A stretch of DNA of 45,135 nucleotides from Escherichia phage BMA1: the sequence record PQ178821.1; one strand, written 5' to 3'. The notes beneath the pieces were generated by a model. That model did no database searches. It had not been told where the DNA came from and saw only the letters and a program-made list of their open reading frames with translations. Each line of letters opens with the position of its first letter. The stretch's first letter is position 1. This document shows positions 8,336 through 29,508 of the stretch, in pieces. The translations under genes and the position numbers were made by a program.

Positions 8336-9422
8336 TCAATATATGGCGGATCGAATGATTCGCCGACACATCTTCACCCAGCGCCTGAGTAATGACCAGG
8401 CGCGAAGGGTGCTGTCCATGTGGGAGAAGTTCCGGCCTACATTACTGGGAAAGCTGACCGAGTTGCTTGATGGCAAATCGTCAATGAACAACAAGGCACT
8501 TTCCACCCTGCTAACGCAAATCGACAAGACCGTAAAAACGGAACTGCGCACCGAGTTTAAGGCGTTGGCTGAAAGCCTTCAGGAGTTTGCAGACACGGAG
8601 GCTGATTATCTCGCCGACACATTAACGGCAGCGATCCAGCCGGTGGTCGCCGTACCTGCGGTTGAGGTGGTGGGTGTTGTGACAGGCGCGCAGATTGCAG
8701 CGACTGCAATGAAAAACCCGTTCCAGGGAAACACCATGATGCAGTGGCCTGATTCACTTTCTGAGTGGACCAGGACGCAGATCGGTAACCAGGTGCGAGC
8801 GGGATTCATCCAGGGCAAGCCAACGATGGAAATTATCGCGGACGTGAGGCGCGCGCTAGGTGGTCGTAGTGCGCAAGCTATCTCGAGCGTTGTTAAGTCC
8901 GCAGTCAACCACTATGCGGCGACAGCCCGCGAATTAATGGTAAAAGCTAATGACGATATTCTCGAAGGTCGCCAATGGTTATCTACATTGGACACTCATA
9001 CTTCTCCCATGTGCCAGCTACGCGATCGCCTGTTTTATCCGGTTGATGTTACTCCCGACACCAAAGGAAAGCGCGGCGGGAAAGTGGTGGCTGGATCACA
9101 ATATGGCGCTGGTCCGGGCAAGTTGCATTATTGCTGCCGGTCGACGGAGACGTGGAAAGTCAAGGGCATGGAAGATTGGCCCAGTGGTAAGCGTCCGGCA
9201 CTGAAGGCTGACGCGGGTAGATTGCTGAGTGAGCAGGTAGACGCGCAGACTGATTTCTTCTCATGGGTGCAGCGCCAGCCGCGCCATATCCTGGAAGAAC
9301 TATACGGAGTGCAACGCGCCGACCAGATTATGCGCGGCGTGAAAGTGCCGAAGATGTTCACCGATTCAGGTGAACTGATGACTATCGCACAGCTTAAAAA
9401 CCGGGGGTTATGGCGTGATTAA
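8319..9422 (+). CDS. head morphogenesis protein (Mu F / SPP1 gp7-like minor head protein, 367 aa)
   Basis: Position after portal; conserved-looking HYCCRS segment. Confidence 0.75.
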   Translation: MAKTINQYMADRMIRRHIFTQRLSNDQARRVLSMWEKFRPTLLGKLTELLDGKSSMNNKALSTLLTQIDKTVKTELRTEFKALAESLQEFADTEADYLADTLTAAIQPVVAVPAVEVVGVVTGAQIAATAMKNPFQGNTMMQWPDSLSEWTRTQIGNQVRAGFIQGKPTMEIIADVRRALGGRSAQAISSVVKSAVNHYAATARELMVKANDDILEGRQWLSTLDTHTSPMCQLRDRLFYPVDVTPDTKGKRGGKVVAGSQYGAGPGKLHYCCRSTETWKVKGMEDWPSGKRPALKADAGRLLSEQVDAQTDFFSWVQRQPRHILEELYGVQRADQIMRGVKVPKMFTDSGELMTIAQLKNRGLWRD

Positions 9423-9744
9423 ATATGCAGCGATTGGACTGGTTATCGGTCTGGCGGTAGGATTCTGGCTAGGTGACTCCTATCGCGCTGGCGTAGTGGC
9501 GGAGGCGGCGCAAGAAGCGCAAGCCCAAGCCCAACGGCAGCAAACTAAAGTTGTTGAGCGCTCCGTGCAGGCCGAACAGGCCCGCGACGTAGAATACCGG
9601 ACTATCACGAAAGAGGTTGTTAAATATGTTACGCGCCCTAACCGCCCTGATTGTAGTTTTGATGCTGAGCGCGTGCGGATCAAGCAACGTGCCGTTGATG
9701 CCGCTAACGGAGTCGGCACTGCGACCGCCGTGCAAGTTCGATAG
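9415..9744 (+). CDS. i-spanin (Rz-like, 109 aa, GTG start)
   Basis: N-terminal TM helix (AAIGLVIGLAVGFWLG) followed by charged coiled-coil-like region; overlapped by lipoprotein ORF in another frame. Confidence 0.6.
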   Translation: MIKYAAIGLVIGLAVGFWLGDSYRAGVVAEAAQEAQAQAQRQQTKVVERSVQAEQARDVEYRTITKEVVKYVTRPNRPDCSFDAERVRIKQRAVDAANGVGTATAVQVR

Positions 9745-9856
9745 CCCGTCTGCAGACCCCGACGAGGATTTGATGATTGACGTGAAAAATATGGAATGCG
9801 GGGCGAAGCTAAGGGCGCAGGTGCTGGAGTTGCAGCAAATAATTAAGGGGCCGTAA
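9617..9856 (+). CDS. o-spanin (Rz1-like outer-membrane lipoprotein, 79 aa)
   Basis: Signal peptide with lipobox LSAC, Pro-rich mature part; starts inside the Rz-like ORF in a different frame and extends beyond it. Confidence 0.6.
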   Translation: MLNMLRALTALIVVLMLSACGSSNVPLMPLTESALRPPCKFDSPSADPDEDLMIDVKNMECGAKLRAQVLELQQIIKGP

Positions 9857-16610: not shown

Positions 16611-16929
16611 AAGCGGGACAGGCGGGACGTCCCGTTTTGTCCCGCCTCTGTAAAACCACATATCTAATCACTTTTATTGCATAAACTCAAAGCGGGACAG
16701 GCGGGACGTCCCGTTTTGTCACACCCTGTAAATGTGCATACCTATGCAGATTTCGTGCATAAACCAAACGGGACAAAAAGCGGGACAAACACGAGGCGGG
16801 ACAAAGCGGGACAGCACCCCGTCCCCGCCAGTGCTGCCGCGGTTTTTAGCCGATCGGGACAGCGGGACAGCACCCCAGTCTTTCAGACTAGACGGGGGTC
16901 AATGGCCCCCCTCGTCTGAGACTGAATAA
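16611..16929. repeat. GCGGGACA iteron array with tandem ~76-bp subunits and terminal hairpin (copy 1)
   Basis: At least 9 GCGGGACA-like units; palindromes GCGGGACGTCCCG+TTTT at 16622..16638 and 16701..16717; 3' part near-identical to 44851..45025. Confidence 0.7.
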
Positions 16930-21798: not shown

Positions 21799-22406
21799 CC
21801 ACATTTAAATTATACGGCGTTTTAGGACGTCGATTCGGTAAAGTACATAAGCTGGACTGCTTCACTCCGGGCGAGGGTATTACCGGTCTGTGCGTGAAGT
21901 TACCCGGCTTACAGGACTTTCTAATGTCGGCCCACCTGGACAATATGATGTTCAAGGTGCGCAAAGGCGACCACACGATGACCGGATACGACGAGTTGGG
22001 GGAGTTCCACGGCGACCGCGTAGTGACCATCGCACCGGTTATGACCGGCGCAAAACGCGGACTAGGCCAATTACTGGCGGGCGTAGCCATCGTGGTGGCG
22101 TCGTTCTACACCGGCGGCCTTGCGACTGCCGCTTTTGGTGCTTCCGCCGCGACCGCTGCCGCGATTGGTACGGCGACGTTCTCGTTCGGGATGTCTATGG
22201 CGCTGGGGGGCGTTATGCAATTGCTATCGCCGCAACCGAAAGGATTGCAGACACGGCAGGACGTGGATAACAAGGCGTCGTATGCGTTCGGCGGACCGGT
22301 AAACACGACCGCGCAAGGCACGGCACTTGGTGTATTATGGGGCGAACGTGAGATCGGCGGCGCTATTATTTCAGCCGGAATCGTAACAGAGGACTTGAAC
22401 GAATGA
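21789..22406 (+). CDS. tail assembly protein I-like (205 aa)
   Basis: Position between K-like and J-like genes; hydrophobic Gly/Ala-rich C-terminal half. Confidence 0.7.
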   Translation: MAMTTFKLYGVLGRRFGKVHKLDCFTPGEGITGLCVKLPGLQDFLMSAHLDNMMFKVRKGDHTMTGYDELGEFHGDRVVTIAPVMTGAKRGLGQLLAGVAIVVASFYTGGLATAAFGASAATAAAIGTATFSFGMSMALGGVMQLLSPQPKGLQTRQDVDNKASYAFGGPVNTTAQGTALGVLWGEREIGGAIISAGIVTEDLNE

Positions 22407-25400
22407 CGATTATCTACGACGTCACTGGGCATAAAGGCGGCGGCGGCAAACAGCACACCCCACAGGAGACACCAGATAGCCTGCATTCGCTGGCTAAAAT
22501 CCGCATCTTGCTTGCATTGGGTGAAGGGGAATTCGAAAGTATTACCAGCGCAAGCGAATTGCGGCAGCGTGTATACCTGGACGGCACGCCGATCCAGAAC
22601 GCGGACTTGTCCGAAAACTTCCCCGGCGCGCGAGTGGAGTTCCGCCCAGGCACACAGCACCAGGACGTGATCCACGGATTTTCAGCGGTGGAAAGTGAGC
22701 AATCCATCGGTGTAAAACTGGAAAATGGCACGCCGTGGGTGCGCCAGATTAATGACACCAGTCTTGACGCTGTGCGCGTCCGCATCGGCATTCCCGCCCT
22801 GTACACCAACGAAGACAACGGCGACCTGGTGGGCGGGCGCATCGACTACAAAATCGTTGTGTATACGGACAACGCTGATCCGCGTGAGTTTACCTTCGCT
22901 GCCGTTGGTAAAACAATGTCGCTGTACGAGCGCGATCACCGCATCGAGTTACCGCCGAACGCTAATACCGGCTGGCGAGTTGAGGTACACCGCACGACGG
23001 CGGACTCCACATCGGCGAAAGTGGTCAATGATATCCGCGTACAATCCATTACAGAGATTATCGACGCCCGCCTGCGATATCCGCTAACCGCGCTGTTGTT
23101 CGTGGAGTTCGACGCGAAGGCGTTCCAGAACATCCCGCGCGTGTCCATCAAGTGCAAAGGTCGCAAGGTGTTGGTCCCGAACAACTACGACCCAATTAAT
23201 CATACCTATTCAGGTGACTGGGATGGCACTTTCAAACGCGCATGGACGGATAACCCCGCGTGGCACTGGTACGATATTTGTATTACTGAGCGCTTCGGCC
23301 TCGGTCGTAGGATCAAGCCGCAGATGTTAAACCGATATGCGCTTTACCAGATTGCGCAGCGCTGCGATCAACTGGTAAGCGACGGCAACGGTGGTCGCGA
23401 AATCCGCTTTAAGAATGATATGTACATTCAGTCACAGACGGATGCCTGGACCGTGCTTAAGGATTTAGCCGCCATTTTCGCCGGAATGACCTGGTGGGGC
23501 AACCAGATGTTGAATATCGTCAGTGACCAACCGGTCGCAGCAGTGTCGCACACTATCACCAACGCCTCGGTAATTGATGGTAGATTCGACTATGCATCCG
23601 GTAGCCAGAAAACACGGTATTCCACATTCGCGGTAGCATACGGCAACCCGAAGAACCACTACGAGGACGCCATCGCCACGGGCCAGCGCGTCGAACTGGT
23701 GCGCCGCCATAAGATTAACCGCCTCGATATAACGGCGATCGGCTGTACGCGTGAATCAGAAGCGCAACGCCGGGGGCACTGGGCGCTAATCTCCAACCAG
23801 CTTGACCAGCAAGTTAGCTTTAAGGTTGGCATGGAGGGACTATTCTTTATTCCGGGTAGCGTAGTCGCGATCGCCGATACAAACATTTCTGGTGGCTTCG
23901 AGACACGCGGCGGTCGCCTGTTGTCGGACCCTGGCACGCGTACCGTGCTTAACACGGACAGCGAAATCACGTTCCGCCCAGGTGATAAATTCCTGGTACG
24001 CACCGATAGCGGTAATGTGGAGACTCGCGAGATCGCCAGCGTCAACGGCAACAAGGTCACGCTAAAAACTGCACTGGACGCCGACCCGATTCCCGATCAG
24101 CCATTTTGCGTTGATGGCGACGATATCCAGTTGCAGAAGTTCCGCATCACCGACCTGGAATACGACGACTCTACCAGCACTTTTTCAGTGCGCGGGATCG
24201 AATACAACGATAGCAAATATGATGCCGTTGATAATGGCGCTCGCCTTGACCCCGGCATCTTTACGCAAGTGCCCGACGGTGTGATGAAGGGGCCAGAATC
24301 CGTGACCATCACCCCGTCGCAGATTTCATCGCAAGGCCAGCTAATCACCAACGTTGATATTGTATTCCCGCCGGTGAAGGATGCCGTGGTGTATGAAATC
24401 CAGTGGCGACGCACCAGCTTGCAGAATATGGAAATCCAGTGGGGTAACGACTGGGTAAACATCCCACGTACGGCATCGAACGGCGCGCACATCCCTAACG
24501 TGTTTTCCGGTAACTACCAGGCACGCGTCCGCGCGATCGGTATGGGTGAGATTTCATCACCGTGGGTGTCGTCTGCCATCACGCCGGTGGAAGGTCGTCT
24601 CGGCGGTCTTAACGCGCCTATCATCACCAACGCGATTTCGGGCCTTCACCAAATTTTGTGGAAGTGGAACCACAACAACGCCGCGACGGATATTTCGTAT
24701 ACCGAGCTTGAGGTCCGCAAGACGGGCGAAACGGAATGGAAGTTCTTAACCAACGTCCCATATCCTGGGTCGGAGTATGCGCAAACGTCGCTGGAGTTCG
24801 GGATCTACCAGCAGTTGCGCGCTCGCGTAGCGGATAAAATCGGCAACCTATCGGACTGGTCCGCCCCGTTTGAAGGCCAGGTGAGTGACAAAGTTGACGA
24901 GTATATGAAGGGGCTGGACGACGAGTTCTTGACTTCTGAGGACGGTAAACGCTTCCAGGAAGCGATCGATACCATGCCGCAAGGCATTTATGAGGCTATG
25001 CTCACCGACGCACAGCAATTGTTTAACGCCCGCGCCGAGTACAAGGGGATTTATGCAGAAATCTCGGTCGCGTATAACGTGGCGGCAGATGCCCACCAGG
25101 CGGTAGCGCAACTGGAGACGTTGATCGGCACGCGACTTGACGATGCTGAAGCGGCGATCCACACGTTGCAGACGGCGCAGAGTACGCAAGAGCAGGCATT
25201 CGCCCAGTACCAGCAAACTGTTGCCGCTAAGTTTTCGGAACAGGAAGCAGCCATCCAGCAGGTACAAACGGCAACGGCAGACGTAGCGGGCGCACTGGCG
25301 GAGTATAAGACCCAGGTCGCGGCGCAGTTCGGTCAGCAGTCCGCAGCTATCGAGCAGAAGATGACGTCTTCGTTTAACCACGCGGGCGGTAGTGCCACAT

Positions 25401-25822
25401 ACAGCCTTAAGGCTGGCGTGACGTATAACGGGACTTACTACGATGCCGGTATGCAGCTTTCGGTCGTGGCGGAAGGTGGCGCGGTTAAATCCCGCATCGC
25501 GTTCAAGGCGGACCAGTTCTACATCATGCACCCATCTAACGGGTCGCTTTCGTCCGCGTTTATTGTTGACGGCGGGGCGGTGTATATTGACACGGCCCGC
25601 ATCAAGAACGCGTCCATCAACTTCGCGCAGATCACGGACACGCTGCAATCGAATAACTACGACGGCAGCACGCGCGGATGGCGCTTAGGTAAAGATGGAA
25701 CGTTTATCAACCTGGGAGCCGGCAACGGCGGCGCGATGAAACAGACGAACACGCAAATCAGCGTCAGGGATGGAAACGGAGTTCTCCGCGTGCAGATTGG
25801 TGAAATCACGGGTAGTTGGTAG
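22403..25822 (+). CDS. tail tip / host specificity protein J-like (1139 aa)
   Basis: Size and position after M/L/K/I-like genes. Confidence 0.9.
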   Translation: MTIIYDVTGHKGGGGKQHTPQETPDSLHSLAKIRILLALGEGEFESITSASELRQRVYLDGTPIQNADLSENFPGARVEFRPGTQHQDVIHGFSAVESEQSIGVKLENGTPWVRQINDTSLDAVRVRIGIPALYTNEDNGDLVGGRIDYKIVVYTDNADPREFTFAAVGKTMSLYERDHRIELPPNANTGWRVEVHRTTADSTSAKVVNDIRVQSITEIIDARLRYPLTALLFVEFDAKAFQNIPRVSIKCKGRKVLVPNNYDPINHTYSGDWDGTFKRAWTDNPAWHWYDICITERFGLGRRIKPQMLNRYALYQIAQRCDQLVSDGNGGREIRFKNDMYIQSQTDAWTVLKDLAAIFAGMTWWGNQMLNIVSDQPVAAVSHTITNASVIDGRFDYASGSQKTRYSTFAVAYGNPKNHYEDAIATGQRVELVRRHKINRLDITAIGCTRESEAQRRGHWALISNQLDQQVSFKVGMEGLFFIPGSVVAIADTNISGGFETRGGRLLSDPGTRTVLNTDSEITFRPGDKFLVRTDSGNVETREIASVNGNKVTLKTALDADPIPDQPFCVDGDDIQLQKFRITDLEYDDSTSTFSVRGIEYNDSKYDAVDNGARLDPGIFTQVPDGVMKGPESVTITPSQISSQGQLITNVDIVFPPVKDAVVYEIQWRRTSLQNMEIQWGNDWVNIPRTASNGAHIPNVFSGNYQARVRAIGMGEISSPWVSSAITPVEGRLGGLNAPIITNAISGLHQILWKWNHNNAATDISYTELEVRKTGETEWKFLTNVPYPGSEYAQTSLEFGIYQQLRARVADKIGNLSDWSAPFEGQVSDKVDEYMKGLDDEFLTSEDGKRFQEAIDTMPQGIYEAMLTDAQQLFNARAEYKGIYAEISVAYNVAADAHQAVAQLETLIGTRLDDAEAAIHTLQTAQSTQEQAFAQYQQTVAAKFSEQEAAIQQVQTATADVAGALAEYKTQVAAQFGQQSAAIEQKMTSSFNHAGGSATYSLKAGVTYNGTYYDAGMQLSVVAEGGAVKSRIAFKADQFYIMHPSNGSLSSAFIVDGGAVYIDTARIKNASINFAQITDTLQSNNYDGSTRGWRLGKDGTFINLGAGNGGAMKQTNTQISVRDGNGVLRVQIGEITGSW

Positions 25823-25826
25823 CATA

Positions 25827-25848
25827 GGGGCTTCGGCCCCTTTCTTTT
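25827..25848 (+). terminator. terminator candidate after J-like gene
   Basis: GGGGC ttcg GCCCC followed by T-rich run. Confidence 0.55.
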
Positions 25849-25859
25849 GGAGGTATAGC

Positions 25860-26162
25860 ATGGCTTTCGGTGTAGCAACATGGGACGCGCAAGGGCGACC
25901 AAACAACTACGGTATCAAGCCCGTTTCGGTAGCCGGAATTATTAAACTGGCACAAGGTCAAACATCTGGGGCGTGGTCATTCGATATTCCGTCGGGGATG
26001 AAAGTAGGTTTTGCGGTTACGCTGGACGTAGGCGGCACTACGGTCGGTCGGGCGATCCGTGCCAGCGGGAACACGATAACAGTATCTGCCGCAAACAGCG
26101 TCGGTATTGGAAACTACCCCGCATCTGAATGTGAGGTAGTAGTTTTTGTGGAGAAAGCGTAA
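25860..26162 (+). CDS. hypothetical protein (100 aa)
   Basis: GGAGG RBS; shares a WDAxG segment with the next gene. Confidence 0.45.
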   Translation: MAFGVATWDAQGRPNNYGIKPVSVAGIIKLAQGQTSGAWSFDIPSGMKVGFAVTLDVGGTTVGRAIRASGNTITVSAANSVGIGNYPASECEVVVFVEKA

Positions 26163-26164
26163 AA

Positions 26165-26836
26165 ATGGCAAACTTCGGCGCGTTAATCGATAACAACAAC
26201 GGCAACCCATTCGTCACGCCAAACTCAACGCCATTCGTGCTCTATGCTAAGGTGTCCGCAAATTCAGTTGACGCAGGCGCGGGTTATAAGACGGCTAGTG
26301 GCGCAGTGGATATCCCCGCGAACTATCCGGCGATGGTGTTTATGCGGTCAAATAACCGTTGCGTCCTGGCGGCGTCACGATCAGGTAACCGGATTATATT
26401 TAGCGGAAGCATTCAGGGGCAAAATAACCCGCATTTTACCGTCACGGCGTACGTATTCGCGCGATTCCCGCAACCGCTGCCTCGATGGGGATTTGCAATT
26501 TGGGACGCCAGCGGGACTTGCATACTCACCAACGAGAGCAAGGTGCTCACCGATTTAGTCACAGTCGGCAGCTTCGGTAATAACGGAGGGATCAACATAG
26601 ACCAGACGTTGCCGGGTAAGTACGCGGTGTCGCCAATGTTAATGGGGGCTACTCTAATCCAAATATTCGTGCAAGGACAGCCGCAAATAATACAGATTTC
26701 GGCGGGCGCGGGCGCTTATGACAACGGAAGCGGCACTCGTATTAACGCAGTCGCAACGCAGGCGGGGTCTGGTAGCATCGCAGGATATCAAAACACCGGC
26801 GTTGCTCTGACTGCAATTAACGTTGATGGGATATGA
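26165..26836 (+). CDS. hypothetical protein (223 aa), possible tail accessory protein
   Basis: ORF downstream of J-like gene; Gly/Asn-rich. Confidence 0.5.
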   Translation: MANFGALIDNNNGNPFVTPNSTPFVLYAKVSANSVDAGAGYKTASGAVDIPANYPAMVFMRSNNRCVLAASRSGNRIIFSGSIQGQNNPHFTVTAYVFARFPQPLPRWGFAIWDASGTCILTNESKVLTDLVTVGSFGNNGGINIDQTLPGKYAVSPMLMGATLIQIFVQGQPQIIQISAGAGAYDNGSGTRINAVATQAGSGSIAGYQNTGVALTAINVDGI

Positions 26837-26854
26837 TTAAACCCCTTTCGGGGC

Positions 26855-27073
26855 TTATTTGCAGGTTGTGCTTTTGAAGTGGTCCACTGACACATACTGG
26901 AAGTTGAACGGGTATCCCGCCCTAAGCATTTTGTGTCCGCTAAAATCGGCGACCCCAAACACGGGGACTGAGTAATCCATGCCGCTATTCTGGTATGTCG
27001 CGTCGCAGACTTTAGCTGGCATGTTGGCACAACCGGACAAAAGAACCGCACAAATCATAATTAAAGTTTTCAT
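26855..27073 (-). CDS. small lipoprotein (72 aa), superinfection-exclusion candidate
   Basis: AGGAGA RBS, signal peptide with lipobox LLSGC; antisense between J-like and tail fiber genes. Confidence 0.6.
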   Translation of the reverse strand: MKTLIMICAVLLSGCANMPAKVCDATYQNSGMDYSVPVFGVADFSGHKMLRAGYPFNFQYVSVDHFKSTTCK

Positions 27074-27127
27074 GGTATCATCTCCTATATTTGGTTGAGT
27101 TTTAGTATTACACCGCTCAATCAAGAA

Positions 27128-27137
27128 TGCAACCAAT
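27128..27137 (-). promoter_or_regulatory. ATTGGTTGCA motif (reverse orientation) upstream of lipoprotein gene
   Basis: TGCAACCAAT on + strand, 55 nt upstream of the - strand ATG. Confidence 0.35.
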
Positions 27138-27153
27138 TTAAGAGGATTTAGCT

Positions 27154-28893
27154 ATGGCAGCGGGTACTCTATCCGTAACGAATAACAGCAAGGCGGTTGT
27201 AGGGGTAGGCACAACGTTTACCGCGTTTAACGCTGGCGACTTCTTAACGCTGGTTGTAGGACAAGTCCCCTACACCGTGGCAATCGCGTCCATTGAAAGC
27301 GACACGTCGCTTACTCTGGTTCTGCCGTTCGACGGCCCAACGGCAACCGGCCTTGCGTGGGATGGCGTTAAGCGCGACACCATGTCCCTGGCAACTATGG
27401 GCGTGACCGTCCAGGCACAGAAAGCATTGCGCTTGATGATTGCGGATGAAAACAACTGGCGTGCAATCTTCGGCGACGCTGAAGAGATCACCATTACGCT
27501 GCCCAACGGGCAAGTTATGCAGGGTATGTCATGGGGCTATCTGTCGCAGTTGATGAAACAGATCGACCCCGTTGAGATGCGCAACCTGCAACAACAAGCC
27601 GCCGCATCGGAAGCAGCCGCGCAAGGATTTCGTAACGAGGCTGAAGGATTTCGAGACGGCGCGCAAGGATACCGCAACGAGGCGCTCCAATTCCGCACCG
27701 ACTGCGAAGGGCTGAAGAACGAAACGACAAACCTTCGCAACGATGCGCTCCAATTCCGCACCGACTGCGAAGGGCTGAAGAACGAAACGACAAACCTTCG
27801 CAACGATGCTAACACAGCTAAGACTGGCGCGGAGACGGCACGCGATCAGGCGCAGAACATCGCCGACGGTATGGACCCTGGCCAGTATATGCAGAAATCC
27901 GCAAACCTGAGCGATGTCGCTGATAAGGCGCAAGGCCGGGCGAATATGGGACTCGGCCCTACCGATGCCGTGGTGTTCGGAGGGGCTACCCTCAACGGTC
28001 CCTCGCGCGTCGACGGACCGCTGTTGCTCGGCAGGCAGCAGTGGGATGGGTCTAGCTGGGGGAGCTACGGACTACAATCGTCATTCGTCATCATGTCGCC
28101 GGATGGAGACTCCGAGCCGGGATTTTACATCAGGCCGCTATCGGGTGCGCCTGGGTACGCAACGTCGTTCACCTATAATCTCGCGATTAATCTTTTCAGC
28201 ACCGGTGCTCGCATCAAGGCGGTTAACTTCTCATCCAGCACTACGACTATGGGTTATAGCGAGATGTGGTCACGTGCATGTTTCCAGGGGCAGCCATACG
28301 ACGCCCAGGCGGGGGTTGAGAACTACCAATCGCTTGTCGCCGGTGCTTGCGGGACTATCGGACAGGGCTTTTACGGTGGCGTTGCGTTCGGCATGATGAC
28401 TTCTGGCAGGGCTGGGTGGCCTGTCGGTCAGATCTCGATCGGCGCACAAGACCGGGCGGCGGACGGCACTATCGGCCTGCAAATGCACTTCCGGTTTCAT
28501 TCATCCGGTAACATTACGTATACGGGGCCGGCGGGGTCGGGGTCATTCCAGCAAATCCCGGCATCTGACCGCAACATTAAGCATGATATTAAAGACGATA
28601 AATCCAGCACAGCATACGATAACATTCGAGCCATTCGATTCCGTAATTTCGTATTTAATGATGACGAGCAGGAGCGTATTCGTCGCGGGATTATCGCACA
28701 GGAGCTTGAAGAAATCGACCCGCTTTATGTTAAGCACCGCGAATACCACAACATGGAGCTTAACGGGCCGAAGATTACGCGACTGGAGCTTGACACGACG
28801 CCGCTGTTACTGGACACAATGCGAGCGTTGCAGGATACGATTAAGCAGGTGGAGGAGTTGAAGGCAGAGATCGCGGCGTTGAAGCAGGCGTAA
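27154..28893 (+). CDS. tail fiber protein with C-terminal S74-type intramolecular chaperone domain (579 aa)
   Basis: Heptad-like FRNEA/YRNEA repeats; SDRNIKHDI autocleavage-type motif near 28561; coiled-coil C-terminus. Confidence 0.85.
   Translation: MAAGTLSVTNNSKAVVGVGTTFTAFNAGDFLTLVVGQVPYTVAIASIESDTSLTLVLPFDGPTATGLAWDGVKRDTMSLATMGVTVQAQKALRLMIADENNWRAIFGDAEEITITLPNGQVMQGMSWGYLSQLMKQIDPVEMRNLQQQAAASEAAAQGFRNEAEGFRDGAQGYRNEALQFRTDCEGLKNETTNLRNDALQFRTDCEGLKNETTNLRNDANTAKTGAETARDQAQNIADGMDPGQYMQKSANLSDVADKAQGRANMGLGPTDAVVFGGATLNGPSRVDGPLLLGRQQWDGSSWGSYGLQSSFVIMSPDGDSEPGFYIRPLSGAPGYATSFTYNLAINLFSTGARIKAVNFSSSTTTMGYSEMWSRACFQGQPYDAQAGVENYQSLVAGACGTIGQGFYGGVAFGMMTSGRAGWPVGQISIGAQDRAADGTIGLQMHFRFHSSGNITYTGPAGSGSFQQIPASDRNIKHDIKDDKSSTAYDNIRAIRFRNFVFNDDEQERIRRGIIAQELEEIDPLYVKHREYHNMELNGPKITRLELDTTPLLLDTMRALQDTIKQVEELKAEIAALKQA
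27682..27807 (+). repeat. perfect in-frame tandem duplication (2 x 63 bp) inside tail fiber gene
   Basis: 27682..27744 identical to 27745..27807; encodes ALQFRTDCEGLKNETTNLRND twice. Confidence 0.8.
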
Positions 28894-28912
28894 GAGTTGA
28901 AGAAATAGGAGA

Positions 28913-28934
28913 GGGGCCGTGCGGCCCCTTTTTT
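28913..28934. terminator. bidirectional terminator between convergent operons
   Basis: GGGGCCG tg CGGCCCC stem with TTTTTT; separates + tail fiber gene and - strand block. Confidence 0.6.
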
Positions 28935-29508
28935 AGTTTGAGTTTTCCCAGTCCATTTTGCGCCGCACCAGGGGGCTTTCGTAGTATTCCTTCCCTTCCA
29001 CTTCCACTAAAGGCCAGTCATTAACAATCACGTACGGTTCCGCGATATCTTCAATCACGCCGTGCGCGTTATGTTGTCCGAAATCTACGCCCACCAGGAT
29101 AACCCCGGCAACTCGACGGGTTAGATACTCACGAGCGCAACGAGCCTCGACCAGTCCGCGACGGATGCCGCTGGTGGCCTTAACCTCATAGGTCCAGACG
29201 GCATCAATCATGTGTTCCCGGAAGTCGGGACCGGACTTAACCTTGCGCTTACCGACCATGATAATATCGCCGCGGTCGATTGTATTAGCACTAAACAGGC
29301 CGGTACGCATTAGCAAACCTTGCGGGATACAGCTACGCCCGCCCGCCTGCCCTTCGAGGTACATGCCTGCAAACATTTCGCCCAGCACACCGACCAGACG
29401 GCTTTGCTTGCACGCGTCGGACTTATACCGCCACTGGTCAAACTCTATGCTTGCGATCATTGCCGCCAGGTGGAATTGTTTACCAGATATTTCATATTCG
29501 CCGTACAT
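28933..29508 (-). CDS. hypothetical protein (191 aa)
   Basis: ORF with GAGGG RBS; D...EVK segment loosely compatible with a PD-(D/E)XK nuclease. Confidence 0.5.
   Translation of the reverse strand: MYGEYEISGKQFHLAAMIASIEFDQWRYKSDACKQSRLVGVLGEMFAGMYLEGQAGGRSCIPQGLLMRTGLFSANTIDRGDIIMVGKRKVKSGPDFREHMIDAVWTYEVKATSGIRRGLVEARCAREYLTRRVAGVILVGVDFGQHNAHGVIEDIAEPYVIVNDWPLVEVEGKEYYESPLVRRKMDWENSN

Follow-up and report, generated by a model that had tools for sequence, protein, structure and literature searches.

What does the short gene on the minus strand, set among the plus-strand tail genes of Escherichia phage BMA1, do for the phage? The gene, cor (26855-27073), lies in a stretch of DNA of 45,135 nucleotides that was analysed whole and is here called the window (sequence record PQ178821.1). 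We read it as encoding a Cor lipoprotein that would block the receptor FhuA through the steps set out below, and we give this reading a probability of about 0.9. The gene itself is an ordinary cor and already known, being annotated in databases and discussed in recent papers. No experiment on the Cor of BMA1 or of any Dhillonvirus was found in the literature.

The open reading frame (ORF) begins with an ATG at 27073, ends with a TAA at 26857-26855 on the minus strand and comprises 72 codons. It opens MKTLIMICAVLLSGCANMPAK, and the complete 72-residue precursor is MKTLIMICAVLLSGCANMPAKVCDATYQNSGMDYSVPVFGVADFSGHKMLRAGYPFNFQYVSVDHFKSTTCK. A preliminary description of this DNA had placed a minus-strand 72-aa lipoprotein ORF with the motif LLSGC at 26855-27073, and both the ORF and the lipobox are found exactly there, LLSGC being residues 11-15. 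The assignment of the gene draws on the ORF and its translation, PHROG 1119, NF047972 and dN/dS. The N-terminus has a single Lys followed by a hydrophobic core (mean Kyte-Doolittle 2.4 over residues 3-14). The predicted lipoprotein signal peptide comprises residues 1-14 (MKTLIMICAVLLSG; 27032-27073, minus strand) and is recognized by the lipobox LSGC at residues 12-15. The codon of the predicted lipid-modified Cys15 (27029-27031, minus strand) follows directly, and the +2 residue is Ala. Under the established '+2 rule' for Lol sorting, Ala at this position leads to the outer membrane. The predicted mature lipoprotein (26858-27031, minus strand) has 58 aa and contains Cys23 and Cys71 (mature Cys9 and Cys57) and the motif RAGYPF.

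By its sequence the cor product is a lipoprotein precursor. The call is purely a match to a sequence pattern; over the whole window such a pattern search returned a lipoprotein-type N-terminus in two of 596 Met-started ORFs of at least 40 aa, namely cor and the Rz1-type spanin at 9626-9856. The segment of phi80 Cor equivalent to the signal peptide carries a signal peptidase II annotation. A longer ORF of 93 aa from a TTG at 27136, the start given in the GenBank records of SECphi4, ZCEC10 and StarDew, was considered and rejected. With that start the signal peptide would no longer be N-terminal but preceded by 21 residues, and a ribosome-binding site is lacking; the Cor proteins of T1, phi80 and N15, which begin at the equivalent Met, also contradict it.

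The family assignment is consistent across searches. BMA1 Cor matches PHROG 1119 'Cor superinfection exclusion protein' over its full length (E 1.5e-27) and scores 58.4 bits against the NCBIfam equivalog NF047972 'phage exclusion lipoprotein Cor', for which the curated cut-off is 31. Pfam holds no family for it. In a tblastn search of 50,697 phage records 244 records matched, every one covering at least 80% of the protein. A word-indexed homologue search with the single sequence gave 6 close relatives, and a profile built from six Cor proteins gave 259. The closest relative is the Cor of GeorgBuechner (BASEL phage Bas16), with 100% identity (E 6e-43). Other Dhillonvirus Cor proteins are 85-96% identical, those of Hanrivervirus-type T1-like phages 52-56%, T1 Cor 49% (E 7e-15), HK022 and N15 Cor 42% (E about 1e-8 to 1e-9) and phi80 Cor 40% (E 7e-9). 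The matches to T1, phi80, N15 and HK022 span 97-100% of the length of BMA1 Cor.

Conservation among 92 aligned Cor homologues is concentrated at a few positions. The lipobox Cys15, C23, C71, G53 and P55 are invariant, and Gly14, A52, Y54 and F56 are each at least 90% conserved. The RAGYPF motif is identical across six reference Cor proteins and nearly invariant in the 92-member alignment. Orthologues are already labelled as (Cor) super-infection exclusion protein in many GenBank records. On sequence grounds the BMA1 gene belongs to the Cor superinfection-exclusion family. The earlier proposal of a Cor/Llp-type receptor-blocking lipoprotein beside receptor-binding genes agrees with PHROG 1119, with NF047972, with the similarity to T1, phi80, N15 and HK022 Cor, and with synteny.

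The gene is also maintained by selection. Codon analysis was carried out on the cor of the window and 10 Dhillonvirus orthologues (11 sequences, 55 pairs). Variable sites number 17, 13 and 43 at codon positions 1, 2 and 3, and the mean pairwise dN is 0.066, dS 0.687 and dN/dS 0.096. The cor genes of BMA1 and GeorgBuechner encode an identical protein despite a dS of 0.21. The gene is under strong purifying selection and is real, and a chance ORF is ruled out by the dN/dS together with the third-position variation.

By megablast the window belongs to Dhillonvirus, the HK578/SO-1-like virulent siphophages of E. coli, with approximately 150-160 matching records. In the nearest of these, 98% of the first 25 kb is covered at 92-93% identity. 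No record is closer, and BMA1 is therefore either a new isolate or a variant at species level in a genus that has been well sampled. No tRNA genes were found in the window.

The order of genes in the window is J, a 100-aa gene, a 223-aa gene, a hairpin, cor on the opposite strand, a spacer and the lateral tail fibre gene. The J-like central tail fibre or tail tip protein (22403-25822, plus strand) is recognized by Pfam FNIII-A_GpJ, Phage-tail_3 and Phage_Tail_Tip. The 100-aa protein (25860-26162, plus strand) is a cor-cassette protein of the N15 gp22 / T1 ST32 family (PHROG 557, E 3.2e-32), 98% identical to that of phage bob, 73-75% to those of phi80 and N15 and 48% to that of T1. The 223-aa protein (26165-26836, plus strand) is of the N15 gp23 / T1 ST31 family (PHROG 425, E 7e-67) and is 99% identical to that of bob and 49-55% to those of T1, phi80 and N15. 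It is a candidate FhuA-specific receptor-binding protein (PMC13164509; bioRxiv 10.64898/2026.04.02.716166). The lateral tail fibre gene (27154-28893, plus strand; PHROG 1980, E 1.1e-138) has a C-terminal Peptidase_S74 chaperone domain (Pfam PF13884, E 7.7e-11). The cor gene converges with the 223-aa gene and diverges from the lateral tail fibre gene across an 80-nt spacer. It had been placed between the J-like and tail fibre genes; the tail fibre gene adjoins it through the spacer, and from J it is separated by the two plus-strand genes. The order J, gp22-like, gp23-like, cor is common to the window, T1, phi80, N15 and Hanrivervirus aaroes.

A transcription unit of its own is proposed for cor. 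A Shine-Dalgarno sequence, AGGAG (27082-27086, minus strand), was read 8 nt before the start codon. Of the 11 Dhillonviruses, 10 have AGGAG or AGGGG here and SECphi4 has AAGAG. The 80-nt spacer is almost invariant among the 11 phages, with variation in its middle; together with the AGGAG it fits the upstream motif of its own that the gene had been said to possess. A putative sigma-70 promoter (27104-27132, minus strand) consists of a -35 TTGCAT (27127-27132), a 17-nt spacer ending in TGT (extended -10) and a -10 AATACT (27104-27109). Among the 11 phages the hexamers are conserved (TTGCAT or TTGCAA, and AATACT) and the sequence between them, 17 nt ending in TGT or TGC, is variable. A 7-nt inverted repeat, TTGGTTG...CAACCAA (27130-27136 and 27091-27097), brackets the putative promoter. 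A consensus promoter and terminator scan reported neither the cor promoter, in which 7 of 12 hexamer positions match, nor the 3' hairpin; the four promoter-like and six terminator-like hits of that scan are no more than in shuffles.

The putative promoter of cor in the spacer is proposed from this conservation and from phi80, whose cor has an annotated promoter of its own at the equivalent position. A separate promoter is likely because read-through from minus-strand genes lying farther upstream would have to get past a strong bidirectional terminator (28906-28935) and then 1.7 kb of the tail fibre gene in antisense. It need not be purely early, because in relatives of the LptD type this promoter region stands ahead of a gene pair of lipoprotein and receptor-binding protein (RBP). 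At the other end, a 3' hairpin (26838-26857, minus strand) with an 8-bp stem (-12.2 kcal/mol) overlaps the cor stop between the two convergent genes. Its folding is unusually stable (z -2.96; 0 of 200 shuffles as stable), its CCCC/GGGG stem is invariant in the 11 phages and its loop is GAAA, GAAC or TTTC. T1 has an annotated terminator at the matching place. The hairpin is likely a terminator, although its T run on the cor strand is short in this window. Terminator-like hairpins had been described on both flanks of the gene. The 3' one stands; no upstream one was found, the 80-nt spacer folding no better than shuffles on either strand (z -0.4).

The receptor is predicted from relatives. FhuA is the terminal receptor of Bas16, a phage with a Cor identical to that of BMA1 (S5 Table, PMC8594841), and phage bob is reported to be FhuA-dependent (PMC10373560). 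BMA1 is predicted to use FhuA because its Cor is 100% identical to that of Bas16 and because its 223-aa protein shares 99%, and its 100-aa protein 98%, identity with the bob counterparts. The three-gene cor cassette occurs in FhuA-using Drexlerviridae and Dhillonvirus phages (PMC13164509). This cassette has been described as marking phages that depend on FhuA, Dhillonviruses among them (PMC13164509; bioRxiv 10.64898/2026.04.02.716166), as has an RBP/exclusion locus downstream of gpJ (PMC8594841).

For BMA1 Cor we infer the use and timing of the promoter, lipid processing and an exclusion phenotype and, by analogy, direct binding to the periplasmic side of FhuA with allosteric inactivation of the receptor. 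In the proposed mechanism, cor would be transcribed alone from the conserved promoter in the spacer common with the divergent tail fibre gene, and transcription would stop at the hairpin common to the convergent 223-aa gene. The 72-aa precursor would be exported, lipid-modified on Cys15 and relieved of residues 1-14 by signal peptidase II, and Lol-dependent sorting would bring the mature protein, with its +2 Ala, to the outer membrane. There the 58-aa mature Cor would form a small beta domain, which a disulfide between Cys23 and Cys71 would probably hold together. [quoted passage not shown] As an outcome, other FhuA-dependent phages (T1, phi80, T5 and sister Dhillonviruses) would be excluded, and the progeny would be kept from loss to the debris that lysis leaves.

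Which of these outcomes maintains the gene is a separate matter. The main role of the same molecule may be not to exclude competitors but to inactivate FhuA on the infected cell, which would save newly released phages from injecting their DNA in vain into debris and outer-membrane fragments. BMA1 is a virulent phage, and no integrase or repressor is seen among annotated relatives. Virulent porin-targeting phages have been described as encoding Cor (T1) or Llp (T5) against the adsorption of offspring to debris (PMC11990801). We see the chances of this explanation as evenly balanced. It is, however, not exclusive with superinfection exclusion, since both would follow from one receptor blockade, and the sequence does not separate them.

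The mechanistic part of the FhuA-blocking reading leans on Llp of phage T5. Llp, on the periplasmic face of FhuA, binds the plug in a non-native state and causes loops EL7 and EL8 to close inward on the site where the phage binds; the Llp disulfide C11-C58 is required for the interaction with FhuA (PMC9586334; bioRxiv 10.64898/2026.03.26.714494). The invariant mature C9 and C57 of Cor match the positions of this pair. An AlphaFold2 model of Cor (92-sequence alignment) has four strands and a mean pLDDT of 83.9, with 92-93 over residues 21-70. In a Foldseek search with the model, Llp (8a60_B) ranked third and had the lowest rmsd among the ten best-ranked matches. In BFVD a Dhillonvirus Cor came first, and matches 2-5 were T5-like phage lipoproteins or 'receptor-blocking' proteins. 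The predicted fold of Cor is thus Llp-like, a small beta fold. The 92-sequence profile had Llp as its best match in the PDB, at a marginal E of 0.013 and over the signal peptide and first strands, and phmmer with the single Cor sequence found no match in the PDB.

The best structural match, which is to Llp in its FhuA-bound form, argues against an indirect action of Cor, by way of other outer-membrane proteins or a disturbed FhuA-TonB coupling instead of Llp-like plug binding. So do the conserved disulfide cysteines and a published AF3 model in which a T1-like Cor docks to FhuA from the periplasmic side with an ipTM of 0.84 (PMC13164509). Indirect action is therefore unlikely, even though how Cor itself works at the molecular level is, in the literature, 'not yet elucidated' (bioRxiv 10.64898/2026.03.26.714494) and TonB is needed by T1 and phi80 but not by T5. 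The binding of Cor to FhuA may, all the same, not be a simple one-to-one copy of that of Llp.

It is very improbable that the lipoprotein blocks a receptor other than FhuA, such as BtuB or LptD. Rtp45-like LptD blockers do fill the same slot in other Dhillonviruses, and Cor-like proteins occur in BtuB-using phages (PMC13164509). In its mature domain, however, BMA1 Cor shows 100% identity to the Cor of Bas16, a FhuA phage. The Cor equivalog model NF047972 is passed, the linked 223-aa protein has 99% identity to its counterpart in bob, likewise a FhuA phage, and nothing beyond the signal peptide is common with the LptD-type lipoprotein. A reading of cor as an Rz1-type o-spanin lysis protein or as a chance ORF antisense to the structural operon, prompted by its small size, its lipobox and its strand opposite to the neighbours, has next to no standing and is rejected, since the genuine Rz/Rz1 pair lies elsewhere (9415-9744 and 9626-9856; PHROG Rz-like spanins, E 1.9e-36 and 4.1e-26), the family matches of cor are to Cor with none to a spanin, and the dN/dS is as given above.

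Homology between BMA1 and the LptD-type StarDew is lost between blastn breakpoints at 25661 and 27026, and the exchangeable cassette is therefore taken as 25662-27025. This receptor-specificity cassette comprises the J tip (the last approximately 53 codons of J, plus strand, from 25662, StarDew homology ending at 25661), the genes for the 100-aa and 223-aa proteins, the hairpin and the part of cor for the mature domain. StarDew has other genes in this slot, one for a lipoprotein like Rtp45 (9rps_D, E 2.8e-8) and one for an LptD-binding protein of the Oekolampad type (9rpt_C, E 3.9e-211). All 16 N-terminal residues of the StarDew lipoprotein are the same as in BMA1 Cor and nothing is shared after them; the DNA homology of the two phages ends just past the Cys-Ala codons. 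Against EP23 the breakpoints in window coordinates are 25674 and 27060. That phage carries a third, unannotated lipoprotein behind the same 5'UTR, with the joint a few codons into the signal peptide. The 125-nt segment of promoter, 5'UTR and signal peptide is present in 153 records at 90-99% identity, and DNA of the mature Cor domain in 75 Dhillonvirus records, so that about half are without Cor.

The pattern is thus one of shared sequence at 27026-27153 and exchanged sequence at 25662-27025, and the shared part may act as a recombination anchor. We suggest that 27026-27153, with promoter, 5'UTR and signal peptide, is a fixed 'expression and export socket' in nearly all Dhillonviruses, and that the mature blocking domain is swapped together with the J tip and the RBP genes as one 1.36-kb cassette (25662-27025); we would call this interpretation an even bet. 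If it is true, a receptor switch would be physically coupled to a switch of self-exclusion, and a new receptor would automatically be blocked. A signal-peptide cassette joint at base level was not found described in a limited full-text search of the literature. Modularity at the gene level is already published; what is modestly new is only that the joint lies at the lipobox.

Two alleles of the 223-aa gene exist within the FhuA group. The protein of the window is 99% identical to that of bob and only 54% identical to those of GeorgBuechner and JLBYU37. The joint between these alleles is placed near the hairpin, because the 223-aa proteins are 54% identical while the Cor proteins are 85-100% identical.

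The cor gene marks BMA1 as a predicted FhuA user that would disable its own receptor, and matters little beyond correct annotation. For phage cocktails, a BMA1-infected cell should turn refractory to FhuA phages of the T1, T5, phi80 and Dhillonvirus types, and the gene is also relevant to contaminations of fermentations. For the re-targeting of such phages, a design rule would be the exchange of 25662-27025 as one unit. The compact 58-aa Dhillonvirus Cor is a reasonable target for a structure of a Cor-FhuA complex, the Cor family being so far without a solved one.

The cor of BMA1 can be set beside several known systems. T1 Cor (ST30) and its T1-like Drexlerviridae relatives share with BMA1 Cor the lipobox, the two mature cysteines and RAGYPF, T1 Cor at 49% identity over the full length. 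T1 also has J, an approximately 100-aa gene, an approximately 225-aa gene (ST31), a terminator and a convergent cor. Both phages are virulent and use FhuA as receptor, in BMA1 by prediction. Unlike T1, BMA1 belongs to a genus, Dhillonvirus, outside Drexlerviridae. Its cor faces the lateral tail fibre gene over 80 nt, whereas upstream of T1 cor come roughly 500 nt of non-coding, AT-rich DNA and genes for recombination. BMA1 Cor is 3 residues shorter, with two fewer in the signal peptide and one fewer at the C-terminus.

The Cor proteins of the temperate phages phi80, N15, HK022 and mEp167 (NF047972, PHROG 1119) are 40-42% identical to that of BMA1 and have 3 extra residues after the lipobox linker. 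Their cor follows gp22- and gp23-like genes downstream of J. That of phi80 has an annotated promoter, signal peptide and lipid-modified Cys, the precursor being cut by signal peptidase II. In these phages cor has the orientation of the tail genes and is regarded as a moron that the prophage expresses (lysogenic conversion), whereas the cor of BMA1 is convergent and the phage is without lysogeny genes.

Llp of phage T5 (PDB 8A60 chain B, 7QJF) is related to Cor by a sequence similarity that is marginal (profile E 0.013). T5 infects independently of TonB, and its receptor-binding protein, pb5, is unrelated. A lipoprotein of the Rtp45 type, known from siphophages that target LptD (PDB 9RPS chain D), takes the place of Cor in sister Dhillonviruses, StarDew among them. 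Promoter and 5'UTR ahead of it are the same, and the 16-residue N-terminus of the StarDew protein, MKTLIMICAVLLSGCA, is identical to that of BMA1 Cor. In the Rtp45 type the mature domain is unrelated to Cor and the target is LptDE, and the RBP gene lies downstream on the lipoprotein's own strand.

The receptor-specificity cassette of the phage BMA1 window spans 25662-27025 and comprises the C-terminal tip of the J protein, a 100-aa gene (25860-26162, +), a 223-aa gene (26165-26836, +), a hairpin and the mature domain of Cor, the predicted superinfection-exclusion lipoprotein encoded by cor (26855-27073, -). Sequence comparisons indicate that Dhillonviruses exchange this cassette as one unit. 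The joints in the window lie at 25661 and 27026 against the locus of Shigella phage StarDew, and at 25674 and 27060 against that of Shigella phage EP23. The joint at 27026 immediately follows the lipobox codons in the exclusion gene. The segment beyond this joint (27026-27153), which holds the promoter, the 5'UTR and the signal peptide, is present in 153 phage records, whereas the mature Cor segment is present in only 75.

Variation is also found within the cassette. The 223-aa protein exists as two alleles among the FhuA-type Dhillonviruses. The window copy is 99% identical to that of bob, yet it shares just 54% identity with the GeorgBuechner (Bas16) and JLBYU37 proteins. In contrast, the Cor proteins of the window and GeorgBuechner are 100% identical. 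The 223-aa gene and cor thus form a mosaic, in which the allele joint lies close to the hairpin at 26838-26857.

The region covering cor and its upstream spacer (26900-27300) drops to a GC content of 0.42-0.48, compared with 0.54-0.60 in the flanking tail genes, and its composition is moron-like. The putative cor promoter lies between the arms of a 7-nt inverted repeat, TTGGTTG...CAACCAA (27091-27097 and 27130-27136), whose sequence does not vary across 11 phages. The repeat could be an operator; alternatively, it could merely result from the promoter and ribosome-binding elements.

The annotation of cor orthologues is inconsistent among database records, including those of SECphi4 (MT331608), ZCEC10 (OK310514), StarDew (NC_073082), SM_S22 (PP627283) and GeorgBuechner (MZ501070). 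In some GenBank records the N-terminus has been lengthened from an upstream TTG. The SM_S22 annotation replaces cor with two spurious ORFs on the opposite strand, and the Bas16 and B2 records label the orthologue a hypothetical protein.

The lateral tail fibre gene contains tandem repeats at 27618-27809 (2.2 copies of a 63-bp unit, 98% identity) that encode a repeated ALQFRTDCEGLKNETTNLRND segment and are preceded by a weaker 21-bp periodicity. The similarity of relatives to the window is lost from approximately 27600-27650 onward. A strong bidirectional terminator (28906-28935), with a stem of 13 bp on the + strand and 7 bp on the - strand, lies between the end of this gene and a convergent block of DNA-metabolism genes on the - strand. 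A second tandem repeat, with 2.1 copies of a 79-bp unit at 81% identity, occupies a non-coding gap (16611-16776) upstream of an 880-aa gene of tape-measure size; every unit contains a GGGACG/CGTCCC hairpin followed by T's. Overlapping Rz/Rz1-type spanin genes were found at 9415-9744 and 9626-9856 (+), encoding a 109-aa i-spanin and a 76-aa o-spanin lipoprotein with the lipobox LSAC. The pair sits amid the head-morphogenesis genes and not in an obvious lysis cassette.

Other lipoproteins occupy the cor slot in related phages. The LptD-type cassette of StarDew (L016, 1377-2629) carries an Rtp45-like lipoprotein gene and a 324-aa RBP gene, both on the - strand. Because these genes sit downstream of the promoter region that precedes cor in the window, one promoter would be predicted to drive a virion protein and an exclusion protein alike, which is relevant to the timing of expression. 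In EP23 (L017), an unannotated lipoprotein ORF of approximately 80 aa (MKTLIKNLIIPAACLLMTAC...; 1654-1899, -) lies in the cor slot with the same 5'UTR as cor, and the neighbouring J protein carries a long extension at its C-terminus. Besides Cor and the Rtp45-like lipoprotein, this ORF would encode a putative exclusion lipoprotein of a third kind.
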